From positions 7,092 to 71,091 of IMG/VR virus record IMGVR_UViG_3300034073_002951: a stretch of DNA of 64,000 nucleotides; one strand, written 5' to 3'. This DNA is from a virus. Below are positions 1,782-19,285 of the stretch, piece after piece (the stretch's first letter is position 1; each line of letters starts with the position of its first letter). The notes beneath the pieces were generated by a model. The model did no database searches, was not told where the DNA came from, and saw nothing but the letters and a program-made list of their open reading frames with translations. Position numbers and translations under genes: made by a program.

Positions 1782-2851
1782 ATAATTCCAATTTTCATTT
1801 TGATTTTCTCTTCACTACTATAATGAATATTACGTTTATCAAAAATTCCATTAAATTTATTTTGAATTCTTCTTAAAAATTCAAATTCAGCCTCAACACT
1901 CAATCTTTCTAAAAGAACATTTGTAAAATATCGTAAAAAAGTATGAGATTTAAAAGATGAAAAGTGAGTTATTTTTTGGTTTTGAATCAAATATTCATGA
2001 AATCTATATCGTAGAGATTCATAGTCATCGAGTTGATTTTCAATATTAAATTCAAATGAAATACCATCAACTATTAAATTTTTTGGCTTATTTGTTTCAT
2101 ATTCTGTAATTGTTAGAGGAGTTTTATTAGATATTTGTTGAACATTTGAAATATTAAGTTGTATCAAATCCGTATCTAAATTATCATATTCTGAATTTAC
2201 TGTTTTTAATGCAGGTATCATCAGTAATTGTTCTATTACACAAGCGTTGTAATAATCCGAATCCCAAATACCTTGATTTTTTTTGTATAATTTTAATAAA
2301 AATTTTGAAGCTTTTGAAATTGACTTATAATCATATCCACCAAATACACACATATTTGGAACGTAACTAAAATCAATTTTTCTCTTAATAGTTTCGTCTA
2401 ATAAATCAGGAAATTTAGAAAATAATGATACATATGTTTCAAAAAAATTTAGATAGTTTTCAAAAGTTCTTGATTTATTGTAGGTAATGCTTTCTTTAAA
2501 TGGTAATTGATCTGGATGTGAAAATAAGACATTTGGTTCTTTTTCTGTAATTTTACCAAATAAAAAAGTATCGTGATCTATATGAAAAAAAGGTTCTGTT
2601 TGTTTAGAAAAAGTATATATTTTTGGAATTGCAAAATTATACCCAACATATTCATCCAACGATGTATCTATACTATCGTATGGTATTTCAAATCTTTTAA
2701 TATATTCTGAAATTTTAGAATCAGTATATAGATGTATATTTCCATACTTTTGTTTTGCCAAAGCAACTGATAAAAGAATAGATTTAAAATTATCTAATCC
2801 TAAAAACCAATCACCTGATGTTGTATTTTTTAAGGTATGTATAATTTTCAT
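1778..2851 (-). CDS. DUF6734-like / GT-A glycosyltransferase-like protein
   Basis: LYTD, A-x-PKIY...QTEPFFHIDHD (DxD), N-x-x-VFGG, IEQ motifs; very AT-rich. Confidence 0.55.
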   Translation of the reverse strand: MKIIHTLKNTTSGDWFLGLDNFKSILLSVALAKQKYGNIHLYTDSKISEYIKRFEIPYDSIDTSLDEYVGYNFAIPKIYTFSKQTEPFFHIDHDTFLFGKITEKEPNVLFSHPDQLPFKESITYNKSRTFENYLNFFETYVSLFSKFPDLLDETIKRKIDFSYVPNMCVFGGYDYKSISKASKFLLKLYKKNQGIWDSDYYNACVIEQLLMIPALKTVNSEYDNLDTDLIQLNISNVQQISNKTPLTITEYETNKPKNLIVDGISFEFNIENQLDDYESLRYRFHEYLIQNQKITHFSSFKSHTFLRYFTNVLLERLSVEAEFEFLRRIQNKFNGIFDKRNIHYSSEEKIKMKIGII

Positions 2852-3484
2852 TTAAAATGTATAATTAAAATTGTTTAAATCATCTTTATAAAACTCTTCC
2901 ACAATTTTTTTTGTTGAAGAGTTATAATATGATTTATAATCATCTCTTTTGGTTTCATTAAACTTTGGTAGATTTCTATCTAAATTAAACTTTTTAGATA
3001 TATACTCCCATCCCTCATTAATATTTTCAAATCGTATTATGTAATCTACACAAATTTTGTCATTTTTGTACAACCAATACGAAAGTGGATATAAGATAAA
3101 AAATTTTTTATGATAGTTGTAAAAAGAAGTGCTATTTTTATAATTTTGAACTTCAAAAACAAATTCTTCAAAGCTCAACATTTCATTTTTTTTCCCAAAA
3201 ATAATACCATTATTTGTCTTTGAATAAACTATTGAGAAATTTTCTCTAATACAATAATGATAAACAGATACTAATCTGTCAAATGGATTACGTATAGATG
3301 TAAACTTAAAATAATTCGAAAGGGAATTACTTAAAAAGTTTTTATTCAAAGGATGTATGTTTAATGCGCTTTTCTCATTATTTGATAAAACTGAACTAAT
3401 GCTCGTACCACCCGTTCTTGGAATATGAACAAATATTAATTTTTTTTGGTGGTCGATATTTTCTATATAATCGTACTCAATCAT
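2852..3484 (-). CDS. Sulfotransferase family 2 (carbohydrate sulfotransferase-like)
   Basis: 5'-PSB motif FVHIPRTGGTSI and 3'-PB motif RNPFDRLVSVY. Start moved to ATG 3484, just after the PolB stop. Confidence 0.8.
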   Translation of the reverse strand: MIEYDYIENIDHQKKLIFVHIPRTGGTSISSVLSNNEKSALNIHPLNKNFLSNSLSNYFKFTSIRNPFDRLVSVYHYCIRENFSIVYSKTNNGIIFGKKNEMLSFEEFVFEVQNYKNSTSFYNYHKKFFILYPLSYWLYKNDKICVDYIIRFENINEGWEYISKKFNLDRNLPKFNETKRDDYKSYYNSSTKKIVEEFYKDDLNNFNYTF

Positions 3485-3485
3485 A

Positions 3486-5996
3486 CTAAAAACTAAAAAA
3501 CTTTTCTGCGTTTCTTTGTTCACTAATAACCTCACCCCAATTAAGAGCATCATAAAAGTCTTGAAGTTTCTTCAACAACTCTCGGGCAAAGATTTTATCG
3601 TGGTCAACATAAGTATTGATAAAACTCATAATTTGTGGTGGGTCATTATCACCGTGGAATGCAAGGGACTCCAAACCAAGTGGATTGTCTTTTAGATAGA
3701 CCCACTTTACCTTGTCTCCATTTTTCATCGGGTTATACTTGAATGGAACTTCATAGTGTTTCATCAGAGCGTTATAAGAAAGAGCTGCTTTTACGTGAGC
3801 GGGTGTTGATTTTTTAAACTCAAAAAGAGATGTAGTGTTTTTGATTTGATATTTGGATATCTCTTTGACTGCTGAATTCCTTGCAACATCAACAACAGAA
3901 AGACCACTCATACCTTTTTTGAAATTTAGAATGGTATCACTTACCGAATCTTGACTTTCACCTTTAAGAATGTCTATAAGAACTTTGGACATTAACTTTT
4001 GGAACGCCTTGGGAAATGATGACCTTACGACATCCAACCCTTTAACATCCAATCTATCCATAGGAATACCGTTTTCTGCGATAATCCATTGTGCGTATCT
4101 TTTCTTTGCAATCCAAATACCACTACGAGATACAAACTCTTTCTTAATCTGTAATCTATGTTTTTGAACATTAAAGAACTTATCGCAAAGGATATCGTAA
4201 AACTTGTTTAGATAATCTTGCATTTCGCCTGCAATTCCATCTACCAACTGAGCAACTTCTTCATCTGATTTTCTCTTCCAATCAGAGTGACGATGGTCAA
4301 GAAGTGGTACTGCGGAAAAGAACACGGAGTCAGTATCAATATAGATGTTGGAGTCTTTATCAGGTGTACCCAACTCCTTATTATATTTGATGTTTCCCAT
4401 GTTTGCTGTATTCTTAATCACATCTTGACCTGTGGTAGTAACAGCCTCTGCGTTTTCACGGTCATAGAAACGGAAAGCAGGAAGACCCAATACTCCATAC
4501 AAAGAGTTAAGAAGGATTTTCTGTACCAACTGCCTTTTCTTGTAGAACGCGTATTGTTCTCTGTCTCCTTCTTCACCGTATTTCTTTTCCAACTTACGGA
4601 ACTCAACCCTCTTTTGAAACCAATCATCAAGAATACCAGGAATACAACCAACCTTGTCTTTTCGGTAAAGAACCCCGTTGGAAGAAACTGAAAAGTCACT
4701 TTCCTTAATCAACTTTTGTAGGTTGTCTTTCGTAATACGATCATCACCGATAAAGTAATCTTCTACCTCACCCTTTAACCACTTTTGGACATCCCAATTC
4801 TCAATCTTACCGATTTTGGTTTCGGGTGAAATGTTAAGGGTCATAATGATGGACGGATACAGAGAGGTCAAGTCCAAGTCATATACCCAATCATACTTAC
4901 CGACAATCGGGTCTTTTACATACGCACCAATGAACTTCTCTTGGTTGTTGTCACGTATCTCTTGCATCCTTTCTTGTCTGTCCGCTGGTTTGTTGGACGC
5001 TACCAAGTTTTGTCTACGAAGGTAAGTAAGAAGTGCACCCTCCAAGTATTTGGACGAATATACAAAGTCTTCGTATGGAACATGACCAACATGACAAATA
5101 CCACGACAGAGGTCTATGAATTGAAGTTTGTTTTCCAATCCTACTACCAACTCTACGTCAACCAAGTTATACTCAATAAACTTGTCTATATCATCACGGA
5201 AAAGGGTGTCTAACGACCCTGCGTACTCAATCTTACCCTTACCTAACTCAATAAGAGATACGGTGTCTAAACGATAATTTGGAAGTTCTGAGTAATTGTA
5301 ATTCTTGTAAAGAGCAAGGTAATCCAAACAACTCACACCTGCGAAAAACCAACGATTTCGGTAAGGAGAATAGAAACACTCCCCAATCGGAGAAAGGCGT
5401 TTTGCGTGTCTTTCACCCAATATGTTTTTAATTCGGTTGTAAAGGTAAGGAACGTCAAAGTTGTCTATATTCCAACCTGTAAGAATGTCGGGTTGTATTC
5501 CTTCATACAAATCCAAAAACTTTAAAACCATATCTCGTTCGTCTTGGAATGGAAGAACAACAGCCTTGTCAGTTTTACTTGACTCCATTTTACCTTCCTT
5601 GTCCATAACGAGCACATAATACTCATTGGAAAGATTATCATGGAAACCGATAGCGGTAAGTTCATTATGACCTTCTTGTGGATTTGGTAGTCCACTCTCC
5701 ATCTCCACCTCAATATCAAAGGTCATCGTCACTACTCCCTCACTCGGAAGGTCGGAGTCGGGGTATGTGTCTATAAGAACACGAGTGGTTTCAGGTACAT
5801 CTGACTCAAATAGATCAGGGTCATCTTTCTTAAACTTGTATATCTTGGTTAGTCGGTCTCCATAGATAGAGGTATACTCTCCCTTTTCCGCTTTCTCATA
5901 CGCGTACCGAGTATATGGAAATGTCCTGTACCCCAACTTGGAATCCCAAAGGTGGACAAGATTTCGTTCTCGTTGGTAATAAACGTTCTTATAAAT
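3486..5996 (-). CDS. Family B DNA polymerase (gp43-like) with 3'-5' exonuclease; probable ATT start
   Basis: ExoI FDIEV, ExoII GWNIDNFD, motif A DLTSLYPS, motif B KILLNSLYG, motif C YIDTDS. The frame is open upstream of TTG 5936 to ATT 5996, which has GGAGG 7 nt upstream. Confidence 0.95.
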   Translation of the reverse strand: MYKNVYYQRERNLVHLWDSKLGYRTFPYTRYAYEKAEKGEYTSIYGDRLTKIYKFKKDDPDLFESDVPETTRVLIDTYPDSDLPSEGVVTMTFDIEVEMESGLPNPQEGHNELTAIGFHDNLSNEYYVLVMDKEGKMESSKTDKAVVLPFQDERDMVLKFLDLYEGIQPDILTGWNIDNFDVPYLYNRIKNILGERHAKRLSPIGECFYSPYRNRWFFAGVSCLDYLALYKNYNYSELPNYRLDTVSLIELGKGKIEYAGSLDTLFRDDIDKFIEYNLVDVELVVGLENKLQFIDLCRGICHVGHVPYEDFVYSSKYLEGALLTYLRRQNLVASNKPADRQERMQEIRDNNQEKFIGAYVKDPIVGKYDWVYDLDLTSLYPSIIMTLNISPETKIGKIENWDVQKWLKGEVEDYFIGDDRITKDNLQKLIKESDFSVSSNGVLYRKDKVGCIPGILDDWFQKRVEFRKLEKKYGEEGDREQYAFYKKRQLVQKILLNSLYGVLGLPAFRFYDRENAEAVTTTGQDVIKNTANMGNIKYNKELGTPDKDSNIYIDTDSVFFSAVPLLDHRHSDWKRKSDEEVAQLVDGIAGEMQDYLNKFYDILCDKFFNVQKHRLQIKKEFVSRSGIWIAKKRYAQWIIAENGIPMDRLDVKGLDVVRSSFPKAFQKLMSKVLIDILKGESQDSVSDTILNFKKGMSGLSVVDVARNSAVKEISKYQIKNTTSLFEFKKSTPAHVKAALSYNALMKHYEVPFKYNPMKNGDKVKWVYLKDNPLGLESLAFHGDNDPPQIMSFINTYVDHDKIFARELLKKLQDFYDALNWGEVISEQRNAEKFFSF

Positions 5997-6484: not shown

Positions 6485-6513
6485 AATATACTCAATTTTT
6501 TTGTTAAAGTCAA
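6485..6513 (-). promoter_or_regulatory. sigma70-type promoter TTGACT-N17-TATATT (HExxH gene-polB unit)
   Basis: Consensus-like hexamers with 17-nt spacer. Confidence 0.7.
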
Positions 6514-7367
6514 GAGAAATCAAAAGGATTTTTATCTAATTCATAATTAATTGCCACGAAATGAATTGCATTACTATCAATTGATGTCATTCTATCTCTA
6601 TACTGTATTGAATATCTGTAATCATATTCACCTATTATATAATCTTTATAAAGTTCGTATGTAAATTCATCTTTGTTTAAAATCAAAAGAGATTTAGATT
6701 GACCTGTCTTAAACCACTTTGATAACTTAATGTGCTCATCTTCACCAAATTGACCATATGGGGAATAATTTTGAAATTTTCTCGTATATGGGGGGTCTAA
6801 AAAAGTAAAGTCATTTTTTGTTGATTTTTCAAGAGTGTCATTCCAATCTTGATTTTTTATTTCTGTATTATCCAATAATTGACACAATTCAGGTGTTATT
6901 TGTATTCTTTTTATATTTTTATACCACCCGAAAGGAACATTATAATTTCCTTTTTTTGAAAATCTTAACATACCTGAAAACGATAGTTGTCTCAGTAAAT
7001 AAAATTTTAAAGATTGTTGATAAGTATCATTAAATTCATTATCTCTATAGTAGTAATAAAAAGTTTGTCCTACTTTTTCAAAATCAGACTTGCTAAGTTT
7101 ATCTTTATCAATGCTATTATACTCATCAACTACTTTGTTTATAAACTCAACAATGTCATGTTTAAAGGTTTTTATACTTTGATAAAATTCAATCAATTCA
7201 GTAAAATTGTCAGATATGGTATTTTTGTTATGATTTAAATTAAACCAAAACGCACCACCACCTATAAAAGGTTCATAATATCTATCAAAGCATTTAGGTC
7301 TATATTTGTGTATGATTGGAATTTCTTTTGACTTCCCACCACTCCACTTAATTATTGGCTTCATCAT
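6510..7367 (-). CDS. dam: Dam-family (D12 class) N6-adenine DNA methyltransferase
   Basis: KPIIKWSGGK, YYEPFIGGGA (motif I), FLDPPY (motif IV), YNVPFG. Confidence 0.9.
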   Translation of the reverse strand: MMKPIIKWSGGKSKEIPIIHKYRPKCFDRYYEPFIGGGAFWFNLNHNKNTISDNFTELIEFYQSIKTFKHDIVEFINKVVDEYNSIDKDKLSKSDFEKVGQTFYYYYRDNEFNDTYQQSLKFYLLRQLSFSGMLRFSKKGNYNVPFGWYKNIKRIQITPELCQLLDNTEIKNQDWNDTLEKSTKNDFTFLDPPYTRKFQNYSPYGQFGEDEHIKLSKWFKTGQSKSLLILNKDEFTYELYKDYIIGEYDYRYSIQYRDRMTSIDSNAIHFVAINYELDKNPFDFS

Positions 7368-8085
7368 ATTTTTGTACTATCTTTCTGTATTCCTCTATTA
7401 TAAATTTCTCGTTTTCCTTTTGGTCTTTTTTTCTATACTCAACAATAAAGTCAAAATTCAAACCTATTAGATTACAAAACTCTTTACCTGTTGTTATATA
7501 ATCCTCTACTTCTTCTGATTTGAAATTGGAATTATCTCCATCATCTAAATTGAAAAGAGTTATAATGTTTTTATAATTAGTATGTTCGAGGAATTTTTCA
7601 ATCAATTTGAACATTCTAATTTCACCATCCGACTTTTTAGTATCGAAGTCATGACCATCTTTAACCTCGACTATATAAATTACACCATTATATATGATGA
7701 TTGCATCAATTTCGATGTTCTTTTTACTTTTCAAATCAACACCAATTGACTTGAAATCATCTCTACTTATTCTTAAGTTTGGAAAATAACAGTTTTCACC
7801 CTTTTCATACTTTTCCAATACTCTATGTATCGTGGGGGTTGTGCCTTCAACTTTGATGGGATTTTTAAGTTTATTACCAGTTTTGGGTGAAATATAGGTA
7901 TATTCTGTTTTATAGACAGGATATGATACGAAAGATACAATTACTCTCTCCAATTCATTACCATTAGAAATAACTGTGGAATGTATTCTTTGAGACAATC
8001 TAGCTATATCTTCATTACCAGTAAGTCTGTAATAACCACTATTTTTGATATCTGATTGTGGATTTGAATTTTTTATAAGAGCCAT
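7348..8085 (-). CDS. Putative type II restriction endonuclease (PD-(D/E)xK)
   Basis: GNELE...EIDAII...IVEVKDG catalytic pattern; overlaps the Dam MTase gene. Confidence 0.6.
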   Translation of the reverse strand: MALIKNSNPQSDIKNSGYYRLTGNEDIARLSQRIHSTVISNGNELERVIVSFVSYPVYKTEYTYISPKTGNKLKNPIKVEGTTPTIHRVLEKYEKGENCYFPNLRISRDDFKSIGVDLKSKKNIEIDAIIIYNGVIYIVEVKDGHDFDTKKSDGEIRMFKLIEKFLEHTNYKNIITLFNLDDGDNSNFKSEEVEDYITTGKEFCNLIGLNFDFIVEYRKKDQKENEKFIIEEYRKIVQKYDEANN

Positions 8086-8129: not shown

Positions 8130-8158
8130 AATATACGAAACTTTTCGGTAAATGTCAA
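8130..8158 (-). promoter_or_regulatory. sigma70-type promoter TTGACA-N17-TATATT (R-M pair)
   Basis: Consensus hexamers, 17-nt spacer. Confidence 0.75.
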
Positions 8159-8166
8159 GTTTTTTT

Positions 8167-9000
8167 TTAAAATTTATAGATACCACCAATATTCCAAAAA
8201 AGCATATCTCCTTCTAATTTGTCTATATTATGTTCCAACCAATGCCATTGCTTGATATCCCAAAACTGATTACAGGGAAAGGGAGCACTATATTCACTTA
8301 ATCTATTATCAAAGTCATATTCTGATTTTCTTACATCAATCGGTAAATGACCCACTCCACTTTTCTTTAACATTTTTTGGATTGAACTTTCGGTGGATAC
8401 ACAAGTTGTCCATACCATTTTATCGGTGGATGGAAAAAATTGATTTAACTCATCTTCATAATACCCCATCATAAGACCCGAAAGAGTTACACCACTTCCA
8501 CTTGATACTACCAAGTTTTTAAAGTTCTTGTAAGGTTGTATTCTTTCTTTTAAGTAGTTACGATAAAAGTCATGGTCGAATGCATAAGGTAACATTTGCC
8601 ATCCATTTTCTTTTGCTTGTTTCTTTAATGAGTTATACATAATACTCATCATATTTGGTCTGATAGGGTTCATATGAACTTCGGGGTACATTTCTTTTAT
8701 CATACCCAAATACTCTTGTGAAATCTTTTTGGAGTTTGGATACGAAACATGAAATTCAATTCCCAAATCTCTACAAATTGCTGAAAGTACCCAACCTGTC
8801 CAAGAACCATCTACGGATAAGTGAGTAAGTGGTTTACTTCTATCTACATACTTTTTAACTAATTCGTAAACCCCACCAATCTTTCCCCAAGGTGGTAAGT
8901 TAACCCCATCACCCATTAAGTCATCTCGTTTTACCCAAACTGACCTACCTTTTATTTTATATTCTTCTAACGGGGTATTTTCGTTAAATCCTAAAACCAT
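8167..9000 (-). CDS. PLP-dependent enzyme, fold type II (ACC deaminase/D-cysteine desulfhydrase-like)
   Basis: VWVKRDDL...PPWGK (Schiff-base Lys region), SSGSGVT phosphate loop, C-terminal LFWNIGG. Confidence 0.7.
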   Translation of the reverse strand: MVLGFNENTPLEEYKIKGRSVWVKRDDLMGDGVNLPPWGKIGGVYELVKKYVDRSKPLTHLSVDGSWTGWVLSAICRDLGIEFHVSYPNSKKISQEYLGMIKEMYPEVHMNPIRPNMMSIMYNSLKKQAKENGWQMLPYAFDHDFYRNYLKERIQPYKNFKNLVVSSGSGVTLSGLMMGYYEDELNQFFPSTDKMVWTTCVSTESSIQKMLKKSGVGHLPIDVRKSEYDFDNRLSEYSAPFPCNQFWDIKQWHWLEHNIDKLEGDMLFWNIGGIYKF

Positions 9001-9836
9001 ACATTTTTATTTCTTTGAAGATGAGCAAACTGAACTTCACCATTTAAACATTCATCAATCACTTTTTTTAAGTTTTCTGCAAAAGAAGAATTAACATACC
9101 CACCCAATTTCCCGTTTTCCATCGGTTGATTATAACACCACGCGGTATGTTCGGTATATCTAATATTTTTTTGTTTAGAAAGTAATTCTCTACCATCGGT
9201 TACTAACATATCAAAGACACCAAATTTTATTTTTCCATTAGAAGACATTTCAAGTAAAGCTGAATTATCAAACAATTCCCCTCTTGATAAGGATATGAAA
9301 TTTACAGGTTCCTTTACATACTGAAAAAAGTTTCGGTCAAAATAATTCTTCGTTTTATCGGTAAGAGGTAAGGTTGAAACAATTGTTTTAGCCCAACTAA
9401 TAAGTTCCTGTATCTCTTCTTTTGGAGTAGAACTATCTACTACTTTAAAATCATTCAACTTTGATTGTAACTTTCGTGATATTGCACCATTACCAAAAAT
9501 CAAAACATTTTGGTCATCTAATATTTTGTCTTTAATCCAATTAGCACAAGGAACGGATGTTGGTGAAAGAGCAACGACACCAATATTTCTTCGTTTACAC
9601 TCATCCAAATTTACCATATCTACACCATGAGACCTACAAACTACCCATTCTAAATTTTTGTATTTATCAAAGGTAGTTTTACCAACTTTACTAAACTTAA
9701 CAGACAAGACTTTTATGTTGTCTGCTATTTTTAGATTTGGTTTTTCGTAAGCACCTAAAATATTAGAGGACGGTAACCTCTGTAATACGGTTGGTGTTAA
9801 ATCCGCTTTGTCTTTTAATAAAACTTGTTGGTACAT
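8991..9836 (-). CDS. D-isomer-specific 2-hydroxyacid dehydrogenase-like NAD(P)-binding protein
   Basis: RSHGVDMVNLDECKRRNIGV, GNGAIS Rossmann motif, LPLTDKTKN, SRG, EHTAW. Confidence 0.75.
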   Translation of the reverse strand: MYQQVLLKDKADLTPTVLQRLPSSNILGAYEKPNLKIADNIKVLSVKFSKVGKTTFDKYKNLEWVVCRSHGVDMVNLDECKRRNIGVVALSPTSVPCANWIKDKILDDQNVLIFGNGAISRKLQSKLNDFKVVDSSTPKEEIQELISWAKTIVSTLPLTDKTKNYFDRNFFQYVKEPVNFISLSRGELFDNSALLEMSSNGKIKFGVFDMLVTDGRELLSKQKNIRYTEHTAWCYNQPMENGKLGGYVNSSFAENLKKVIDECLNGEVQFAHLQRNKNVWF

Positions 9837-11409
9837 TTTTGTCTATAAATAATTCTTCAAAATAATCTTCTATTTTTTCTTTCCAAATTGATTGTTTCAA
9901 AAAATCTGTATGACATCCAACTTGAAAAGTTTTCTTTGGCCTCCATAGGAGTTCTTCACTTATTTCACCTTCAAATGCTTTTCTTAAAATATATTTCATT
10001 ACCTGACCATTGCCTTCGTTTTCATCACGATACTTGGTGGGTATTCTCAGACCAAAGTCAATTAACTTTTTATTTAAGAATGGTGTTCTTAATTCTACAA
10101 TACCACCCCACATCATTGCTTTATTTGTACGAATAAGATTTGTTTTATGAAGACTATTTAGAAGATTTACTCTTTTTTGGTGATACCAAATTGGTTCTGG
10201 CCAACAAAATCGTTTCACATCCCCATAGGAAGCAAAGATTTCATCTGCACCTTCACCCCCAAACACTACCTTAAATCCCCTTTTATCTATTTCTTGGGAT
10301 AAAAACAATTGAGCAACAGCTGGTGATACCTGTGTCCATTTATGAGTTTCAACCGCCCATATACTTTCTTTTAAAACTTCTTCAATCTGTTCACGGGTAA
10401 CATTCACCTCATTTAATTTTATTCCAAACTCTTTTGCAGCCATTCGTGCATAATACAAATCATCCTTCAAGTTTGATTGTCTTTTTTGTTGAACATTTAC
10501 CACAAATGCTTCAATATTTGGATTTACTTTTGAAAGAAGATATGTAATGATTGTACTATCTATTCCACCACTCAATATAGTACACACGGGTACATCTGAA
10601 ATTAGTTCATCATACACCGCTTCTTCTAACAAATTTCTAAACCCACTTGTGTAATAATCTACACCCCTATCTTCACCTTCATAGGCCATAAACTCTTCAT
10701 CATTTCTTGGATAGTATGCCGTTGGATGATGCAAACTAAATTTTGGTTTAAAATCAAAGTACCGAGTTTCTTTAAGTATTCCCAAAGAATTATAAATTAA
10801 AAAGGTTCCTGGTTCAACTATCTTGATTAATTCTTTGTCTTTATATTTTGAATTAAATCTACTCCCCTTATCAATATTATAATATTTAAGTGAATTTATA
10901 GACTCAGTTAGTCCTTTTACTTCACTTGAAAACGCAATATATTGACCATCATAGTAATAATAAAATGGAAGTCTTCCTATAAAGTCCCTTCCTAAAATTA
11001 ATTCATCTTTTTCCTTATCATAAAAAGCAAATGAAAACATACCTTCCAACTCATTTAACTTTTCTTTAAGGTTATTTTTGTTTTCAATCAAAAAGTATAA
11101 GAGAAGTTCGGTATCAGAACTGGTTGTTTTAAATTTGTATTTACTACGAAGGTATGAATTAAATTTGTCAAATGTGGATTTCCACAACTCACCATTAAAA
11201 GCAAGATAATATCTACCACAATCGGAAGACATTGGTTGATTTGCAATTTCGGAAAGGTCTTGAATGGATAACCTGTTATGAGCAAGTTTCATTCCATTTT
11301 GGAAACTGAAAACAGTATTACCATCCATTCCTCGGTGCATCATAGTCATTAGACCATGTTTTATATCATCCATCGAATTGATGATATTACCACCTAATAT
11401 TCCACACAT
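9763..11409 (-). CDS. asnB: Asparagine synthetase B-like glutamine amidotransferase
   Basis: N-terminal MCGI nucleophile, HNRLSIQDL, NGE, SGGIDS PP-loop, GEGADEIF, ELRTPFL. Confidence 0.88.
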   Translation of the reverse strand: MCGILGGNIINSMDDIKHGLMTMMHRGMDGNTVFSFQNGMKLAHNRLSIQDLSEIANQPMSSDCGRYYLAFNGELWKSTFDKFNSYLRSKYKFKTTSSDTELLLYFLIENKNNLKEKLNELEGMFSFAFYDKEKDELILGRDFIGRLPFYYYYDGQYIAFSSEVKGLTESINSLKYYNIDKGSRFNSKYKDKELIKIVEPGTFLIYNSLGILKETRYFDFKPKFSLHHPTAYYPRNDEEFMAYEGEDRGVDYYTSGFRNLLEEAVYDELISDVPVCTILSGGIDSTIITYLLSKVNPNIEAFVVNVQQKRQSNLKDDLYYARMAAKEFGIKLNEVNVTREQIEEVLKESIWAVETHKWTQVSPAVAQLFLSQEIDKRGFKVVFGGEGADEIFASYGDVKRFCWPEPIWYHQKRVNLLNSLHKTNLIRTNKAMMWGGIVELRTPFLNKKLIDFGLRIPTKYRDENEGNGQVMKYILRKAFEGEISEELLWRPKKTFQVGCHTDFLKQSIWKEKIEDYFEELFIDKNVPTSFIKRQSGFNTNRITEVTVL

Positions 11410-11412
11410 ATT

Positions 11413-12066
11413 TTATTTTTTAAAGAGTTGGTCTCGTTCAATTGTACTACTCATCCAATCAGCCCAATGTAATACATATTGAATGTTGTATTTAAGGTAT
11501 TTGTTTGTATCATAGACTTTATAATATTTTACGTTGTCTTCATCGAAAACCCCATCGGTAAGTTTAATACCAAAATACTCTACTTCATTATATTGAATTC
11601 CATATTTGTTAAACAAAAAGAAAGTTCTATCGGTATGGGATAGATAAGAAAGATTTGGGTTTGATTTATATACCTCACCTTTATTTTTGATGTGCCATTC
11701 ACTTTCATTTGGAACATAATGAGGTTCCCCCTTGTCACCTAATTTACCCAAATCATGATGAAATGCTGCAAACAAAAGTTCATCGGTAGTAAAATCAACT
11801 ACCCCACCTTGTTCTTGGTATAACTTCATCATTTTAAGAGAGTTTCTAACCACATTCATCACGTGGTCAATATACCCACCATCGTAGGCGTTGTGGTAAA
11901 ATGTATTTCCTGATGCGGGTGAAACCATTAGGTTTAAACCCAACTCATCTTCGGAATACATATGGAGAAGTTTTTCTAATCGTTCTCCATTAAAAGACTT
12001 TTCTATTGCTTTAAGAAACTTCTTATAATTTTCTTGTAATTGAGCTTCGTTGTATTGTTTTGTCAT
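11413..12066 (-). CDS. HD-domain phosphohydrolase
   Basis: HNAYDGGYIDH...HHDLGK...LHWAD. Confidence 0.75.
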   Translation of the reverse strand: MTKQYNEAQLQENYKKFLKAIEKSFNGERLEKLLHMYSEDELGLNLMVSPASGNTFYHNAYDGGYIDHVMNVVRNSLKMMKLYQEQGGVVDFTTDELLFAAFHHDLGKLGDKGEPHYVPNESEWHIKNKGEVYKSNPNLSYLSHTDRTFFLFNKYGIQYNEVEYFGIKLTDGVFDEDNVKYYKVYDTNKYLKYNIQYVLHWADWMSSTIERDQLFKK

Positions 12067-12091: not shown

Positions 12092-12120
12092 AATATACAA
12101 ATTTTTTTTATAATTGTCAA
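12092..12120 (-). promoter_or_regulatory. sigma70-type promoter TTGACA-N17-TATATT (HD-asnB-dehydrogenase-PLP operon)
   Basis: Consensus hexamers, 17-nt spacer. Confidence 0.75.
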
Positions 12121-12401: not shown

Positions 12402-12429
12402 TAAATGGGGATTTTTACATCCCCATTTA
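12402..12429 (-). terminator. Intrinsic terminator-like hairpin after Hc1-like gene
   Basis: TAAATGGGGAT / ATCCCCATTTA inverted repeat followed by T-rich sequence on the minus strand. Confidence 0.7.
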
Positions 12430-12432
12430 AAT

Positions 12433-12603
12433 TTATTTTGTTTCTTCTACTGAAAGTTTTCTGTATTCAGTAACAAGTTTTTTAAGTTCACCAATTGCTT
12501 TACGGGCACGGGACTTAGCGGCTTTTGAGTTTCCTTGATGTTCTGCTTCAAATTGTGTCCACAATTCACGCATTTGCTCAAAGAGTTCGTGTGATGTTGC
12601 CAT
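12433..12603 (-). CDS. Histone H1-like (Hc1 family) small nucleoid protein, 56 aa (below ORF-track cutoff)
   Basis: MATSHELFEQMRELWTQFEAEHQGNSKAAKSRARKAIGELKKLVTEYRKLSVEETK. The KAAxxRARK...LKKL...YRK signature is recognisable; AAGGAG upstream and a terminator downstream. Confidence 0.8.
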   Translation of the reverse strand: MATSHELFEQMRELWTQFEAEHQGNSKAAKSRARKAIGELKKLVTEYRKLSVEETK

Positions 12604-12689: not shown

Positions 12690-13682
12690 TTATTTTTTAA
12701 AATGTTTTTTATACTTTTCAATTATTTTTTCTTTTGGTTCATTTAAAATTACAGATTTCTTATCTAAATATGTATCTGCAAAATTACTCCAAGTTGAAAG
12801 TGGAAATTTAATTAAAAAAGAACAAAAACATAATGAAAATAAATCGATAACATTTTTAAAATGACTATCTGAAAAAATATCATTTTTAATATACTTTAAG
12901 TAGTCATTTTTTCTATGTAAATTATTTGGGTATTTTTCAAACCAATAATCAATTAAATTATCAGGTCCATCATAACTTATATAAAATTTTTGATTTTCAT
13001 TTATTTCTAAAATAGAATCTATTATTTTAAAATAAAAAGTATCATCATAAAAGTCAAATTGATAAAACGATTCTGCTGATTCTTTTTCTCTAAATTTTAT
13101 AAATTCATTTTTTATACCATCATTAATTTCATGTAAATTATTTTTAAAATGTACCCCTCTTCCTCTTCGTACATGAATTCCAATCATGTTTGAAGTAAAA
13201 TCTTTTAAAATTTTTTCTAAATTTTTATCTTTTATCTTAATATCTTTTATATGTCTTTTAAACTGTTCAGAATCTGAAAATATATCATCCAATCTCGTAA
13301 ATCCAAAATCTGAATACCAATTTTCTGAAGATTGAATTTGTTTTTTTGATAATAATATTTCATCCAATAAGTCTTTATTAATTGGTTTTGATTCTATTTT
13401 ATCAGTTCCTTCTAAATCAAGATTTTTAAAATTCAAAAGATTTATAGATTGCTCAACTTCAACATCTTCTTTAATTAAAATCGTATTAGGTAAATCAAGT
13501 AACTCTAAAAGTTCAGGATAATGTGTTTGTTGTAACAAAATTTTAAATTTGTTTCCATGCAATTTATTTATTTCTTGTGCAATTTCCCAAAAAAATAATC
13601 TATTACACAAACCTGTATCATAACTTCTGTAAATTTCATCGGTATCTCTACCGAATGGTTCTATCCACCTTAATGTACTCAT
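12690..13682 (-). CDS. Fucosyltransferase-like glycosyltransferase (GT11/GT23-like)
   Basis: GLCNRL N-terminal motif, IGIHVRRG, DLFSL...STWS; very AT-rich. Confidence 0.65.
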   Translation of the reverse strand: MSTLRWIEPFGRDTDEIYRSYDTGLCNRLFFWEIAQEINKLHGNKFKILLQQTHYPELLELLDLPNTILIKEDVEVEQSINLLNFKNLDLEGTDKIESKPINKDLLDEILLSKKQIQSSENWYSDFGFTRLDDIFSDSEQFKRHIKDIKIKDKNLEKILKDFTSNMIGIHVRRGRGVHFKNNLHEINDGIKNEFIKFREKESAESFYQFDFYDDTFYFKIIDSILEINENQKFYISYDGPDNLIDYWFEKYPNNLHRKNDYLKYIKNDIFSDSHFKNVIDLFSLCFCSFLIKFPLSTWSNFADTYLDKKSVILNEPKEKIIEKYKKHFKK

Positions 13683-14258: not shown

Positions 14259-16970
14259 TTAGAAATTGTATCTTAACGATGCATTCCACGTTCTACCAAA
14301 ACCAAACCATACAGAGTTACGAACATCAACATCATTCCATGTTGGTGCGGTTCCATCTGCGTGAATGTTGGTATTTGATTCAGCAATATAAACGGTATCA
14401 AACACGTTGTTTACGTTTACTCTGAACGAAGCGTTATGCTTCATCAAATCAAATCTAACAGTAAGACCTAAATCTACCAATCCATAGGAAGGAAGTTCAA
14501 GTGCTCCTTTGTTATCAGGTCTTGTAAAGTCTGATGAAGTAATAGAATAGTCAGCAAATAACTTATCTGCGAAACGATGACTAATGTCTAAACTTACATC
14601 ATCAACTCTAAAGTCAGCTTCTAAGTAAGTAGTAAACTGTGCTGCATCACCAACTTTAGCTCCTTTAGTATAAAGAGTACCTGTACCGATTTGTTGGTTG
14701 TTATCATCAAAGAGTACAGTAGAGAAGTCTTTTGTATATCTCCAATCACCAACTGAAACCATACCTGTTAGTTTCAGAGCGTTGAATGGACGATAAGTTG
14801 TTTCTACTTCTACACCATTGTGAAGAACATCAATATCACGGAACTGTGCAGTACCGTCTGTACCGTCTGCGGTTCTAAATCCTCTACTGATGAAACGATT
14901 ACCCCATACTGTGGAGTAGGCATTTACATTCAAAGTAAAGTCAGTACCTAAGTAACCGTAACCTAACTCAACAGATGTTACTCTTTCATTTTGTAGATCT
15001 GGATTGACTAAGTTTGCGTAGTTAGGAAATACAGCATCAAAGTTTGGTTGACGAGAAATGAAACCTGCATTGAAGAATACATTCTGTCTATCATTGATGT
15101 TGTAGTTTGCTCCACCTTTTACATATCCACCACCTTGGTTTACTTCTTCGGAAAGAGGAAGTGTTGGTTGGTCAAAAAGGTCTTCTCTTTGGAAGGATTG
15201 GTTAGATACACCTGCTTGAACTACTGCTGTAAGTTCTTCACCTGTATACTCGACCAAACCGTTTAGACCTTGCCATCCAACATAACCGACATTATAGTAG
15301 TCGATTTTCGGGCCGTTGAGACCTGTATTTTTGAATGGAGATGGGTCAATCAAAGTTTCAATGATTTGACCTGCGGAGTTCTTATTACCTGTTGAATAAT
15401 AACCATCAAGACCCATAAGGTCAGTTACTACTCGGTAGTGGTAGCCTGTATAGTCTCTCAAGTCAATACCAACTGATGCACGAAGAGTTTCACCTTCATA
15501 TTCCAAGTTAGAAATAACTCCATACCAGTCGTGTGAGTTCATAGAAGCTCTACGAATAAGAACCGCTCTATTTACTCCATCATTACGGAAACCGTTTGAA
15601 CCGATACGAAGACCTTCAAAGCGTGAAATTGCTCCTGTGTAAGCTCCTGTGGTTGCTCTATTGACTTCAATGACTTTATCAAAATCAATAAATCCATCAG
15701 CATCTCTTGTACCTCTACCACGGTTTAAGTAGTGTTCGGTCAAGTCAATGTTGAATGGATACATATCAATATCACCATTACGGAAGTTATTTCCACGAGG
15801 ACCAGTTCCTCCACCTCTACCTGCGGAAGCATAGAAAGAAGTATTCAACTGAAGTCTATCTGTGATTTCATAATCCCAGTTGAATGTTGCTAATGGTTTG
15901 TTGTAGAAGTTTCTTCTCATATTGAACTCTTCACCATCTAAGAATCCAGCATCAGTATTCCATCTTCTATCAATACCTTCTTCACCGAAGTTTTGGTAGT
16001 CACGGATTGATACCCATGAGTCTCTTTGGTGGTGCCATTGACCTGCTCCTAAAACCGAAAGGTTTAGAGAGTGACGGGAGTCAGTTGGATTATATCCTAC
16101 TGCGACAAAGTAAGTATGACCTTCACCTTGTGTTCCGTAGACATATCCATTACCCGCCCAATAGGAATAGAGGAAGGAAGTTGCCCATCCACTTTCACTT
16201 CTACCTGTGGAATAGGAAAGAGTTGTTTTGGTATAACCATCGTTACCGACAAGTTGAGATACAGTACCACCTCTTTCTCTCTCCGCAGCTTTTGTGAAGA
16301 TAGATACAGTACCACCTACTGATGGAACTGCAAGACGAGAAGCACCAAGACCTCTTTGGATTTGGATACCAGAAGCTACATCAGTCAAACCTTGCCAGTT
16401 AGACCAATATACCCATCCGTTTTCCATATCATTAACGGGTTGGCCATTGATAAGGAATGATGTATTACGTTGATCAAAACCACGAAGTGAAATACGGGAA
16501 TCACCATATCCACCACCTGTCTTGGTTGCGTAAACACCGGGTGTTCTTGCCATTACTTCTGGAAACTCTTGATTACCCACTCTTTGTGAGATTTCAAGAG
16601 GTGGAATTGTAGATACTGCAACAGGGGTTTCCCTGATTCTTGCAATATCAATAACTCCGGAAGTAACAACAATCTCACCAAGTTCACCGAACGCCTGTTC
16701 AAGTCTTACGACCATTCCATTTGTTGCAGAAACTTCTTGAGTTTTATAACCAACAAAAGATACTACCAAAACCGTACCTTCGGTTGCTTCTTGAAGTGTA
16801 AAAGAACCATCCATACCGGTACTAGCTCCGATATGTGGGCGTTCTTTCACAACAACAGTAGCACCGGGTAATCTTTCGGAAGTACTTGCATCAACCACAG
16901 TACCTGTGATTTGTGCATTTGCTACCAATGATGAAAACATCATTGTGATTGCTATTAGTAGTTGTTTCAT
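14259..16970 (-). CDS. TonB-dependent outer-membrane receptor with N-terminal carboxypeptidase-regulatory-like domain
   Basis: Signal peptide MKQLLIAITMMFSSLVANA/Q; ITGTVVD...LPGATV...VSFVGYK; plug ISLRGF...LINGQP; beta-barrel ending YNF. Start set at ATG 16970. Confidence 0.92.
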   Translation of the reverse strand: MKQLLIAITMMFSSLVANAQITGTVVDASTSERLPGATVVVKERPHIGASTGMDGSFTLQEATEGTVLVVSFVGYKTQEVSATNGMVVRLEQAFGELGEIVVTSGVIDIARIRETPVAVSTIPPLEISQRVGNQEFPEVMARTPGVYATKTGGGYGDSRISLRGFDQRNTSFLINGQPVNDMENGWVYWSNWQGLTDVASGIQIQRGLGASRLAVPSVGGTVSIFTKAAERERGGTVSQLVGNDGYTKTTLSYSTGRSESGWATSFLYSYWAGNGYVYGTQGEGHTYFVAVGYNPTDSRHSLNLSVLGAGQWHHQRDSWVSIRDYQNFGEEGIDRRWNTDAGFLDGEEFNMRRNFYNKPLATFNWDYEITDRLQLNTSFYASAGRGGGTGPRGNNFRNGDIDMYPFNIDLTEHYLNRGRGTRDADGFIDFDKVIEVNRATTGAYTGAISRFEGLRIGSNGFRNDGVNRAVLIRRASMNSHDWYGVISNLEYEGETLRASVGIDLRDYTGYHYRVVTDLMGLDGYYSTGNKNSAGQIIETLIDPSPFKNTGLNGPKIDYYNVGYVGWQGLNGLVEYTGEELTAVVQAGVSNQSFQREDLFDQPTLPLSEEVNQGGGYVKGGANYNINDRQNVFFNAGFISRQPNFDAVFPNYANLVNPDLQNERVTSVELGYGYLGTDFTLNVNAYSTVWGNRFISRGFRTADGTDGTAQFRDIDVLHNGVEVETTYRPFNALKLTGMVSVGDWRYTKDFSTVLFDDNNQQIGTGTLYTKGAKVGDAAQFTTYLEADFRVDDVSLDISHRFADKLFADYSITSSDFTRPDNKGALELPSYGLVDLGLTVRFDLMKHNASFRVNVNNVFDTVYIAESNTNIHADGTAPTWNDVDVRNSVWFGFGRTWNASLRYNF

Positions 16971-17038
16971 ATGTGTTTTTTGTTTTTTGTTGTTTGTATT
17001 GATACCACACATAGTATGGTATTTATCCTTTTTTTTTT

Positions 17039-19285
17039 TCAAAAGAATTTGTTTGTGTTATTATTTACTTTTATTCTTTTATTCGTTTCCTCAATATAAG
17101 GATTTTTTTGTTCATAGTCAATTCTTGCTTCCGCTATCTCAAAGTATTCCTTTTCTCTTTCTATTCCAATAAAATCAAATCCACCCCTTACTGCTGCCTT
17201 ACCAGTACTTCCACTGCCCATAAACGGGTCTAATGTAGTTCCACTTTTTGGAGTAACTAAACGGATAAGATAAAGCATTAAGTCTGTTGGTTTTACAGTT
17301 GGGTGGTGGTTCTTTCTTGGTTGACCTAATGCACTCTGTCTGCCCGATGCTGGTTTGGACCGGGCGGAAGCCGGAGGTTCTCCAAACGGAAACTCATCCA
17401 ACCCTTCGTTTCTATCCCCTTTTGAAGTTTTTGGACAATAGAAGAAACGAGATGCTCCGCCACTATCATTATGTCTTACTGTTACTTTATTTTTTAACCC
17501 TTTAAAAAAATCATTTTGTTCTTCGGGATTTGTATAACCTATACTTGTTGCCGTACATTTACTCAACCCACTTTGTTCGTCCAATAACTTACCTGCTTCT
17601 TCATCAAAGATAATGTTGGCAGGGAAACGGCCAGGTGGATTATAGTTCTTTGGTTCAACCATAGAGTAATCCCCATATATTATATTACCTGTTAGTGGTT
17701 TTGTTCCAAAGTCTGCGTGTTGGTTTTTTTGTGTGCTTTCTTTTCTATCCGCTTCATCTTTGAATGGTATTCTACTTTCATCTATGTTTATTCCACCGGT
17801 TCCCCATTCTAATACATTATCAACTACTGTATTTTCAGAGAGTGGTTTTCTTGCCATTACGATTGGTTCGTGTGCAGGTTTGAGAGCCGTCCCCCAACCT
17901 TCCCAATCAGAGTTTCCTTTGGTTATTTCCCATTCTCCTACACCATAGGTTGAACCATCATAGTCTGGACTATTTGGGTCTGCTTTACCCCAACAAGCAT
18001 TTTTAGCAGTTCTACTATCATTTCCAACTACTTCTCTTTGATTACCAAGTTTTTTATCAACCTCTTTTCCTATGTTGTGTGATTTGGGGAAGCCTGAGTT
18101 TCCTGTAATGAATACTTTTCCATTTCTACGAGCAACAAAAGCACCAGTTGAGGTGTTAGGACAGAAGATTACTCCTGAATAAGTTTCTTTGGTGATGGTT
18201 GCCAAATCGGTTGTATAGGATGTCCCGCTTCGTATTTCTTGTGGTCGGAGTTGTTCTTGAATAACATTAGATTGTTTATCTCGTTGTTTTCGGGGTTGTG
18301 GTCTATGTGATGGATGCACTCCATTCGTGTTAGTGGTCTCCCCAAATATTGAGCTACCTTCAGTCGGTATTCCGTCACGTAACCATCTTTTCTTGCCATA
18401 CTTTTGTATTCTTCGGGACACCTCACGTATTTTATTCTTGCATTGGAGTAATACCCCTTCTTCTTTCTGTAAGTTATCCCACCCTTCCAAGCTGGATTGT
18501 TCTCCCCACTCATATTCTGTCTGTAACTCTCGTGACTCTTTTCCGTCCACCCCGAACGACCTTTGTGTCCGTGATGTTTCCATTCTTCCCCCCTCACTTT
18601 GCCATTGCATTGGTGACTGCAATAATTGGAGTTCCCCTTCTTGTAAGAAAGAAAAATCGTTTTGCAAAACTGGCACTCTTTCCATATCACCGAGGTCTTG
18701 TGATTTGGTGAATACAAGATTTCCATTTCGTTCAACAAGGCAGTTGTGGTCTTTGCTGACGAGTTGGTCTGTTTGATTTCCTCTAATACGATAGACGGTA
18801 TCTTCGTTGAGCGAATATACATACCACCTTTCGGGCCTTTCCCATTTGTAAATGTCTCTTTCAATATCATAAACTAAAATCTCTCTTTTACTATAAATAT
18901 CATCTTTTGTGATTTTATGGTAGTGTTTCCACCCCTCTTTTGTAAGGATTTCAGTATCTTCTGTTAGACATCCATACACCCACATAATTTGGTCTCTTAT
19001 CTCAAATCCTGCATCTTCTATTCTAACTGCCATTCTATGATAAGTACGTGAACCTGCAAAAGCAAGAAGATGACCTCCGGGTTTTAGAACTCTCATACAC
19101 TCTTCCCAAATCTCTTGTGACGGAACATCGTAGTCCCACTGCTTTCCCATAAATCCACCTTTGGAAGTTTTACCACTATTTGGAGCTGCGGAAAGTCCGT
19201 ATGGAGGGTCCGTAACTATGGAGTCAACGGAATTATCCCCTAACTCTTTGAGTTTATCTAAACAATCACCTAATAAGAGTTTCAT
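17039..19285 (-). CDS. N4/N6 DNA methyltransferase (beta class) containing an intein
   Basis: IVTDPPY (motif IV) at the N-terminus; HPTVKP and LDPFMGSGSTG (motif I) at the C-terminus; the conserved WVYG|SGFPKS is split by a 291-aa insertion. Confidence 0.92.
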   Translation of the reverse strand: MKLLLGDCLDKLKELGDNSVDSIVTDPPYGLSAAPNSGKTSKGGFMGKQWDYDVPSQEIWEECMRVLKPGGHLLAFAGSRTYHRMAVRIEDAGFEIRDQIMWVYGCLTEDTEILTKEGWKHYHKITKDDIYSKREILVYDIERDIYKWERPERWYVYSLNEDTVYRIRGNQTDQLVSKDHNCLVERNGNLVFTKSQDLGDMERVPVLQNDFSFLQEGELQLLQSPMQWQSEGGRMETSRTQRSFGVDGKESRELQTEYEWGEQSSLEGWDNLQKEEGVLLQCKNKIREVSRRIQKYGKKRWLRDGIPTEGSSIFGETTNTNGVHPSHRPQPRKQRDKQSNVIQEQLRPQEIRSGTSYTTDLATITKETYSGVIFCPNTSTGAFVARRNGKVFITGNSGFPKSHNIGKEVDKKLGNQREVVGNDSRTAKNACWGKADPNSPDYDGSTYGVGEWEITKGNSDWEGWGTALKPAHEPIVMARKPLSENTVVDNVLEWGTGGINIDESRIPFKDEADRKESTQKNQHADFGTKPLTGNIIYGDYSMVEPKNYNPPGRFPANIIFDEEAGKLLDEQSGLSKCTATSIGYTNPEEQNDFFKGLKNKVTVRHNDSGGASRFFYCPKTSKGDRNEGLDEFPFGEPPASARSKPASGRQSALGQPRKNHHPTVKPTDLMLYLIRLVTPKSGTTLDPFMGSGSTGKAAVRGGFDFIGIEREKEYFEIAEARIDYEQKNPYIEETNKRIKVNNNTNKFF
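18098..18970 (-). mobile_element. Intein (291 aa) in DNA methyltransferase
   Basis: Block A CLTEDTEILTKEGWK, block B SKDH, block F/G VIFCPNTSTGAFVARRNGKVFITGN, followed by Ser+1. Confidence 0.92.
18169..18870 (-). CDS. HNH homing endonuclease encoded in the +1 frame inside the intein
   Basis: CQFC...CSHQC zinc motif, GENNPAWKGG, EYRL...LGRPL...IHHIDHNPENNEINNL (HNH_3-type). Alternative start ATG 18726. Confidence 0.85.
   Translation of the reverse strand: MILKETFTNGKGPKGGMYIRSTKIPSIVLEEIKQTNSSAKTTTALLNEMEILYSPNHKTSVIWKECQFCKTIFLSYKKGNSNYCSHQCNGKVRGEEWKHHGHKGRSGWTEKSHESYRQNMSGENNPAWKGGITYRKKKGYYSNARIKYVRCPEEYKSMARKDGYVTEYRLKVAQYLGRPLTRMECIHHIDHNPENNEINNLMLFKNNSDHKKYEAGHPIQPIWQPSPKKLIQE

Follow-up and report, generated by a model that had tools for sequence, protein, structure and literature searches.

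The window analysed here is a stretch of viral DNA of 64,000 nucleotides, corresponding to bases 7092-71091 of the IMG/VR record IMGVR_UViG_3300034073_002951 (71,091 bases; G000). It carries four tightly packed genes encoding an HD-superfamily phosphohydrolase (HD), a glutamine-dependent amidotransferase resembling asparagine synthetase B (AsnB), a divergent D-2-hydroxyacid dehydrogenase family protein (DH) and a fold-type-II pyridoxal 5'-phosphate (PLP) enzyme of the family of gp52 from phage M6. The four genes are the copy, in the window, of what is here called the cassette, which is virus-only and mobile and which, as judged from sequence comparisons, probably takes part in an undescribed hypermodification of a phage DNA base or of a nucleotide precursor, a reading in which we place moderate confidence. 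Much less confidence attaches to any particular chemistry. An earlier note on the window had proposed that the genes build a modification either of DNA or nucleotides or of a virion glycan; the first half of that proposal is supported by the membership in the gp52 family, by natural gene fusions, by gene co-occurrence and by the properties of the AsnB-like site, while no link to glycans was found.

The PLP enzyme and the gp52 family

The PLP protein of the window scores 18 bits with the Pfam PALP model (cut-off, 35 bits) and is matched over residues 7-272 by PHROG 7093 at E 2.4e-25, the same family in which M6 gp52 scores 530 bits and which groups gp52 with ViI gp226 as PLP-dependent decarboxylases of DNA adducts. 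A translated search (tblastn) of 50,697 phage records with the window protein gave matches in 53 of them, all being Pseudomonas Yuavirus phages (M6, YuA, MP1412, PAE1 and others) or Sphaerotilus phage SN1. The matched M6 protein is gp52, which aligns end to end with the window protein (coverage, 96%; identity, 25.8%; E 2e-12). Lys40 of the window protein falls on Lys36 of gp52, a position at which all 30 family rows have lysine, and the two proteins have the C-terminal motif APFPCNxFxDxKxWxWL...FWNIG in common. Comparison of the profile of the window's subfamily with the Protein Data Bank (PDB) returned fold-type-II enzymes with E values between 1.3e-5 and 3e-4, namely aspartate racemase, the 1-aminocyclopropane-1-carboxylate (ACC) deaminase homologue 1J0A and cysteine synthases. 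Together with the PHROG 7093 match, these similarities uphold the initial identification of a fold-type-II PLP enzyme and, at the level of sequence, make the protein a member of the M6 gp52 family. In the sections of Lee et al. (PMC8989533) that deal with gp52, the purified enzyme is described as decarboxylating Calpha-glycinyl-thymidine in DNA to yield 5-(2-aminoethyl)uridine, with Lys36 as the proposed Schiff-base lysine.

Among 1.84 billion proteins, 351 representatives of the family were found at E ≤ 0.001. When 185,579 prokaryote genomes were scanned with two short patterns, 30 pattern matches were obtained and none was a relative of the PLP enzyme, a type of search that divergent cellular relatives may escape. 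The family and the cassette are virus-only. The cassette is common among uncultured T4-like and jumbo phages, one pattern having retrieved 241 relatives of the PLP gene from IMG/VR. A distant branch of the family, for which 80 loci (not dereplicated) were inspected by tblastn, has neighbours of the M6 type, with the M6-type radical S-adenosylmethionine (SAM) gene in 27 loci, the amino acid:DNA transferase (AADT) in 20 and the kinase in 12; AsnB and DH were found in 0/80 by the same search. In 20 further loci of this branch, in which 145 open reading frames (ORFs) were assigned with Pfam, a radical SAM gene adjoins the PLP gene in 14 and neither AsnB nor DH was found.

Gene neighbourhoods, co-occurrence and mobility

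The loci closer to that of the window were collected by two scans of IMG/VR, of which the second gave 241 relatives and the best 80 of these were kept. Together the scans yielded 86 loci, with PLP proteins that have 43-87% identity to that of the window. Of the sets of 241 and 119 PLP loci, the best 80 of each were examined. Dereplication at 90% PLP identity reduced the 86 loci to 26 clusters, and in 18 of these the PLP gene is flanked by 4 kb or more on either side; neighbours in these 18 clusters were counted up to a distance of 6 kb from the PLP gene. An AsnB-like gene is present in 15/18, DH in 13/18 and a gene encoding a homologue of thymidylate synthase (TS-like) in 5/18, with no cluster (0/18) having both DH and the TS-like gene. 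A methylase-like gene with the SPPY motif is found in 17/18, and AADT, the kinase or the M6-type radical SAM gene in 0/18.

The AsnB-like proteins fall into two types approximately 33% identical to each other. Type A, to which the window protein belongs, is accompanied by DH in 10/10 clusters, and type B by the TS-like protein in 5/5. Absence of co-occurrence in other genomes had been named beforehand as an argument against a common pathway; instead, AsnB-A and DH are found together in all ten dereplicated loci, in varying gene orders and at varying insertion sites. At locus L071, for example, the order is methylase-like gene, PLP, DH and AsnB, after polB, and at L081 the same four genes sit between the clamp-loader genes gp44 and gp62. 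Locus L087 contains, in addition, genes for two 2-oxoglutarate (2OG)-Fe(II) oxygenases and a GmrSD_N-like gene. In the window, the cassette is surrounded by polB (as the earlier note had stated) and by genes for a thioredoxin, a dUTPase and a kinase-like P-loop protein; in relatives, ribonucleotide reductase and MazG genes are found in its surroundings.

When the partner (DH or TS-like) is mapped on a maximum-likelihood tree built from the PLP proteins, four changes are required, at least three of which are forced by well-supported branches; in the smallest supported clade that includes the window protein, two loci are of the DH type and two of the TS type. The two front ends have thus repeatedly taken each other's place next to a conserved PLP gene, and the cassette is mobile. 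In the TS-like protein the catalytic Pro-Cys is intact and Asn177 is replaced by Asp, a substitution that, by the rule established for T4 dCMP hydroxymethylase, we take to point to a cytosine nucleotide. No TS homologue was found in G000, the approximately 35% complete record from which the window derives, nor in the complete DH-type relative G004.

Methylase-like partners and natural fusions

Two methylase-like proteins encoded in the window are proposed as partners of the cassette (table 1). In the family of the first, a 408-residue protein, both the SAM-binding motif VLDxSxGWGDR and the SPPY motif are invariant, and the look-alikes found in the Atlas form virus-only PF01555 clusters. The gene of the second runs past the left edge of the window, the full gene in the parent record (G000:6475-8097) encoding 540 residues; this type adjoins the cassette in the TS-like variant. 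The methylase-like profile gave no more than one marginal match in the PDB (2zie at E 0.082).

The proposed partnership draws on proteins in which the domains are physically joined. Ten unusually long members of the PLP family were surveyed. In three of the ten, the PLP domain is fused to an N6_N4_Mtase domain; in one the fused domain is of the radical SAM type and has 38% identity to M6 gp53; a GIY-YIG domain is present in two, and in the remaining four no second domain was found. The methylase-like part of fusion P0246 is homologous to the 408-residue protein of the window (E 6e-27), and fusion P0185 matches both the 408-residue protein (E 1e-11) and the N-terminal part of the 540-residue one (E 8e-9). 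A further comparison, of a methylase-like protein with fusion P0217, was not significant (E 0.025). By homology, natural fusions join the PLP family to both methylase-like types encoded by the window phage.

The P0246 protein (1385 residues) combines an SPPY methylase-like part, a gp52-type PLP part and, at its C terminus, a weak match to LPG_synthase_C, an aminoacyl-tRNA-dependent transferase family (22 bits, below the cut-off). It may be a one-protein hypermodification machine.

The SPPY motif would also allow a different type of substrate. Methyltransferases with (N/D/S)PPY motifs also act on the N2 of guanine in rRNA and on the glutamine of release factors, and in the synthesis of diphthamide an aminocarboxypropyl group is first transferred and an amidation follows. 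The target might then be RNA or protein, with a diphthamide-like or 3-amino-3-carboxypropyl-like group being placed on tRNA, rRNA or a host or phage protein, DNA being the presumed substrate of this subclade. That the methylase-like proteins match PF01555 and DNA-methyltransferase PHROGs, that the characterized member of the PLP family works on DNA, and that the neighbours are genes of DNA replication and deoxynucleoside triphosphate (dNTP) metabolism make an RNA or protein target quite improbable in our estimate.

The AsnB-like amidotransferase

The AsnB-like protein has the complete two-domain architecture of the glutamine-dependent asparagine synthetases (Pfam Asn_synthase, 183.8 bits, and GATase_6/7), as found in the E. 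coli AsnB (PDB 1CT9) and human ASNS (6GQ3) structures, and is 32% identical to E. coli AsnB. The presence of Cys2, of the glutaminase residues and of the SGGIDS sequence bears out the prediction of an intact amidotransferase. The PRK09431 model, the AsnB equivalog, gives a score of 285.1 bits, below its cut-off of 499 bits.

The acceptor site was inspected by aligning five phage sequences with E. coli AsnB, with human ASNS as a second reference. Retained in 5/5 phage sequences are Cys1, Arg49, Asn74, Glu76 and Asp98 of the glutaminase site, the PP-loop (SGGIDS), and Glu348, Asp351, Glu352, Tyr357, Arg387, Lys429 and Lys449. Two residues conserved between the E. coli and human enzymes are instead replaced in all five: the Arg of the TTIR motif (TTxR), which is Ser in type A, including the window protein, and Glu in type B, and Asp384, which is Asn. 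We take the roles of these two residues to be in aspartyl-AMP formation and in aspartate binding. Lys376, initially considered as a further discriminator, was dropped, human ASNS having Leu at this position. With the TTxR Arg and Asp384 both replaced, free aspartate is probably not the substrate of the protein, which is an intact glutamine- and ATP-dependent amidotransferase. It thus resembles asparagine synthetase B in its glutaminase residues, PP-loop and most of the synthetase site; it differs from it in these two positions, in failing PRK09431 and in the fact that the window-type AsnB is always embedded in the virus-only cassette.

The dehydrogenase

Both domains of the D-2-hydroxyacid dehydrogenase family are recognized in DH above the Pfam cut-offs (2-Hacid_dh_C, 54.9 bits; 2-Hacid_dh, 34.6 bits), and the best PDB matches are phenylpyruvate and glyoxylate/hydroxypyruvate reductases (E 1.2e-5). 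Arg185 and His230, which correspond to the catalytic Arg and His, are invariant in 6/6 relatives, as is Asp209. The glycine motif reads GNGxI[SAG], its GNGxI part being likewise invariant, as compared with the GxGxxG dinucleotide-binding motif of the family, and the usual Glu-Pro (D-x4-E-P) appears to be absent; by spacing only, the window protein has Asp214 at the position of the Glu, and the six aligned rows have Asp, Ser, Asp, Asp, Asp and Gln there. The two scoring domains and the apparent lack of Glu-Pro agree with the initial description of a divergent 2-hydroxyacid dehydrogenase lacking the usual acid. No fusion of DH was found among longer proteins, which is weak evidence.

The properties of AsnB and DH can also be accommodated by an auxiliary metabolism of free small molecules, in which AsnB would produce asparagine or another free amide, and DH and the PLP enzyme would convert free hydroxy, oxo or amino acids, for example to an amine or polyamine-like compound needed during infection or packed with the DNA. 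The AsnB-like protein scores above the cut-off of the general model for asparagine synthases, and most of its catalytic residues are retained; the closest solved relatives of DH reduce free 2-oxo acids; the PLP profile also matches enzymes of free amino acids (the cysteine synthases, aspartate racemase and the ACC-deaminase homologue); and three clusters have DH and PLP genes without AsnB. Against it are the virus-only distribution of the PLP subfamily, the action on DNA of gp52, its characterized relative, and the fusions of PLP domains with DNA-methylase-like domains rather than with metabolic enzymes, along with the location of the cassette in replication modules, the exchange of DH for a dCMP-type TS homologue and the altered acceptor site of AsnB. 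On balance, a role in free-metabolite chemistry is considered unlikely.

The HD hydrolase

The HD protein has no match in Pfam or NCBIfam, and a sequence search of the PDB returned nothing at E ≤ 10. The HD residues H58, H68, H103-H104-D105, H200 and D203 (H..HHD..D) are invariant in 10/10 relatives. The structural model (predicted local distance difference test score, pLDDT, 72.7) is an all-helical fold with two disordered stretches, for which the best Foldseek match is the HD protein YhaM (E 2.7e-3; probability 1.00), with weaker matches to phosphodiesterases, YqeK, YfbR and SAMHD1. The invariant metal-binding residues and the modelled YhaM-like fold speak for the HD phosphohydrolase that had been predicted. 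Its look-alikes in the Atlas are virus-only clusters.

Its inclusion in the same functional unit was found to hold in part: the gene is packed with AsnB, DH and PLP in the window, but lies beside the cassette in only 5/26 clusters, which include both the DH and the TS-like variants. In the TS-like variant, a 44%-identical HD homologue directly follows the PLP gene. A relationship of the HD protein with M6 gp59 was rejected (E 0.15).

Comparison with known hypermodification systems

The genes that define known routes were sought, at E ≤ 1, in G000 and in four relatives that are 93-100% complete (169-289 kb). No match was obtained in these five records for AADT (PF18724), the 5-hydroxymethyldeoxyuridine (5-hmdU) DNA kinase (PF18748), C5-cytosine methylases (PF00145) or the Cx-SAM synthase CmoA (TIGR00740). 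The thymidine hypermodification route of Pseudomonas phage M6 and Salmonella phage ViI was rejected on the absence of kinase and AADT from the five records and from the 18 dereplicated loci (0/18), and the CmoA/CmoX/CmoY route on the absence of CmoA and a C5-methylase from the five records. Since the defining genes are absent, the cassette belongs to neither.

The window resembles the M6/ViI system in having a PLP enzyme of the same family, with an aligned Schiff-base lysine and the common C-terminal motif, encoded by a phage in a region of DNA metabolism. A partial likeness is also that an HD hydrolase adjoins the M6 TS homologue, yet it is unrelated in sequence to the window protein, as mentioned above. 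The differences are that the window cassette lacks the 5-hmdU DNA kinase, AADT and the M6-type radical SAM isomerase, that the recovered part of G000 has no TS homologue, and that the partners are AsnB, DH and the SPPY methylase-like proteins.

A second comparison is with the Cmo pathway of Synechococcus phage S-B43, in which, as stated in the relevant passages of PMC12783734, the asparagine-synthetase homologue CmoY ligates glycine to 5-carboxymethylcytosine in DNA to give the glycine amide. CmoY provides a precedent by analogy, as an asparagine-synthetase homologue that acts on the carboxylate of a DNA base. The same passages mention a cluster of homologues, described there as untested, that keeps the glutaminase domain, as the AsnB of the window does. 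The only Asn_synthase-family ORF of S-B43 encodes 271 residues, has no glutaminase domain and shows 22% identity to the window synthetase domain over 260 residues (E 3e-7). In contrast to the window cassette, the S-B43 pathway has no PLP enzyme or dehydrogenase; the text of PMC12783734 mentions neither PLP nor a decarboxylase.

The third system is the pre-replicative replacement of cytosine in T-even phages, for which PMC13326640, in the part concerned with it, lists a TS-homologue dCMP hydroxymethylase or a 5-hydroxy-dCMP synthase, a dCTPase and a dNMP kinase. A TS homologue, with Pro-Cys retained and Asp for Asn177, is likewise part of the sister TS-like cassette, and in the window an HD hydrolase, a dUTPase, a thioredoxin and a kinase-like P-loop protein are nearby; as a difference, DH takes the place of the TS homologue in the window variant, and no glycosyltransferase is linked to the cassette in the six annotated loci. 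The starting points of the routes described in the literature consulted are 5-hydroxymethyluracil (M6, ViI), 5-hydroxycytosine, 5-carboxymethylcytosine and the N6 of adenine (Mom). In the literature searched, no paper was found describing a set made of PLP enzyme, AsnB-like protein, DH and SPPY transferase-like protein.

Locus layout and genome setting

The four ORFs lie at the positions given in the earlier note, all on the minus strand and in the order HD-AsnB-DH-PLP (table 1). The gap between HD and AsnB is 3 nt, and the ORF coordinates return the expected overlaps of 74 nt between AsnB and DH and of 10 nt between DH and PLP. Of the proposed sigma70-type promoter upstream of HD it can be said that the site is there and matches well; promoter-like sites in this AT-rich region are nevertheless not enriched (35 observed versus 31.4 +/- 6.2 in shuffled sequences), so that it is a candidate only. 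A second, identical site lies directly past the PLP stop codon; the two would bracket the four-gene unit, the downstream one likely being its boundary.

Table 1. Genes of the cassette region, promoter-like sites and proposed methylase-like partners in the window.
Feature	Position	Strand	Basis
Second methylase-like protein, first 335 codons; inferred partner	1-1006	-	PHROG 12517 and DNA-methyltransferase PHROGs
Second promoter-like site, identical to that at 12092-12120, directly past PLP stop	8130-8158	-	
Fold-type-II PLP enzyme, M6 gp52 family (PHROG 7093), 277 aa	8167-9000	-	
Divergent D-2-hydroxyacid dehydrogenase family protein (DH), 281 aa	8991-9836	-	Pfam
AsnB-like glutamine-dependent amidotransferase, type A, 548 aa	9763-11409	-	Pfam and NCBIfam
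HD-superfamily phosphohydrolase, 217 aa	11413-12066	-	ORF, PHROG 5889 and 28876
Candidate sigma-70-like promoter match, TTGACA-17-TATATT, ahead of HD gene	12092-12120	-	11/12 positions
SPPY-motif DNA-methylase-like protein, 408 aa; inferred cassette partner	22694-23920	-	PF01555, 30.5 bits

Nearly all genes of the window are on the minus strand, its G+C content is approximately 0.24-0.40 and no tRNA genes were found in it. It encodes a family-B DNA polymerase, a DnaB-like helicase, a UvsX-like recombinase, a single-stranded DNA-binding protein and a dUTPase, as well as tail sheath, tail tube, tape measure and long tail fibre proteins. The source is a large T4-like myovirus. A DNA similarity search against cultured phages gave no match for the window.

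Two neighbouring features had been taken as context for the cassette. Between it and polB, a Dam-type N6-adenine methylase overlaps a 245-residue protein by 20 nt (6510-8085, minus strand), a pair that was not seen in related loci and is possibly a phage-borne restriction-modification pair, as had been assumed. The methylase half is well supported (114.3 bits); the restriction half is unproven, because its 245-residue candidate scores 21.6 bits with the NERD model, below the cut-off of 22.1. The DUF1599 gene ('nucleotide modification associated domain 1') at 27896-28288 (minus strand), which had been invoked in favour of nucleotide modification, has a match just below the cut-off (24.6 versus 25 bits), so that the argument is weakly supported at most.

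Other genes of the window and of related loci

Following the HD gene in the direction of increasing coordinates, a strong hairpin resembling a terminator (12402-12429) is located after the gene of a 56-residue Hc1-type, histone-H1-like protein (12433-12603, minus strand; PF07432, 42.7 bits), with counterparts of 73-82% identity in related phages. At 14259-17042 (minus strand) lies the gene of a full-length TonB-dependent receptor (927 residues) with a signal-peptide-like start and CarboxypepD_reg, Plug and beta-barrel domains. The local G+C content is 0.385-0.40, as compared with 0.24-0.33 alongside, and related loci lack the gene, which may have been acquired recently from a host and may hint that the host belongs to the Bacteroidota. 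The region 20038-21270 (minus strand) encodes a 410-residue radical SAM protein that contains a SPASM domain; its gene adjoins that of the dUTPase, and the protein has no PHROG match and no counterpart in related loci. A PhyH-type 2OG dioxygenase is encoded at 35331-36110 (minus strand; 77.6 bits). In related loci (L072:10494-11111; L053:10657-11469 and 1603-2085), a protein-L-isoaspartate O-methyltransferase (201.7 bits), a family-6 glycoside hydrolase (140.5 bits) and a pyrimidine-dimer glycosylase were found.

The regions 1778-3553 and 12690-13682 (minus strand) encode a sulfotransferase (PF03567, 64.8 bits), a DUF6734 protein (87.5 bits) and a product of a 330-residue ORF without family match, the first two of which may be glycan-related. 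AsnB-like enzymes amidate uronic acids in O-antigen pathways, and these genes would fit a glycan pathway in which AsnB amidates a uronic acid while DH and the PLP enzyme tailor a sugar of the virion or of the host surface. None of the three genes recurs near the cassette in related loci, no glycosyltransferase or nucleotide-sugar gene is linked to it in the six annotated loci with a window-type PLP gene, and we know of no sugar role for fold-type-II PLP enzymes of the gp52 family, so that a glycan product is regarded as very improbable.

Possible chemistry and weighing of the evidence

If the cassette takes part in base or nucleotide hypermodification, the steps might be arranged as follows. 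A methylase-like transferase, or another enzyme, would put an amino-acid-like group on the base. The PLP enzyme would bind the free alpha-amine of the group and decarboxylate or otherwise trim it, while the AsnB-like enzyme would adenylate a carboxylate of the adduct, or of a precursor, and convert it to the carboxamide with ammonia from glutamine. DH would interconvert a 2-hydroxy and a 2-oxo acid, in the side chain or in a small-molecule precursor, and the HD enzyme would hydrolyse a nucleotide, removing for example a canonical dNTP or a phosphate.

A more specific version, distinctly doubtful in this exact form, is a DNA hypermodification that dispenses with hydroxymethyl-pyrimidine, kinase and AADT. 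An SPPY enzyme of methyltransferase fold would move the aminocarboxypropyl group of SAM, or another amino-acid-like group, onto an exocyclic base amine in phage DNA; the gp52-type PLP enzyme, the AsnB-like amidotransferase and DH would then process the attached amino acid much as in diphthamide synthesis; and, in an arms race with restriction systems, exchange of one front end (DH/AsnB-A) for the other (TS-like/AsnB-B) would let phages change the product.

Several observations weigh against a hypermodification role in general. An identity of 26% to gp52 is too low to settle which reaction the window PLP enzyme catalyses. The AsnB-like protein is above the cut-off of TIGR01536, the general asparagine-synthase model (283.8 versus 267.1 bits), and with Glu348, Glu352, Tyr357 and Arg387 also kept, plain asparagine synthesis may still be within its reach. 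With AADT, the 5-hmdU kinase, C5-methylases and CmoA absent, no enzyme that creates the presumed adduct was found. In the window, the gene of the 408-residue methylase-like protein is 13.7 kb away from the PLP gene, and much of the co-occurrence of methylase-like genes with the cassette is owed to related phages with common synteny. The three DH-PLP clusters without AsnB are L072, L090 and L092, the first of which also lacks the methylase-like gene. Finally, the completeness of G000 is approximately 35% according to CheckV, and no cultured phage with the cassette emerged from DNA similarity and translated searches of phage records.

Significance

The hypermodifications of phage DNA decide which restriction and CRISPR systems can cut it, and are also a source of enzymes for DNA labelling and sequencing technology. 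The cassette joins a family known for trimming adducts on DNA to an amidotransferase, a dehydrogenase and SPPY transferase-like enzymes, and the repeated exchange of its DH and TS-like front ends offers a natural test of how pathways diversify. If the proposed role is correct, the phages that carry it would contain a new modified base, built with new amidotransferase and dehydrogenase activities acting on DNA.

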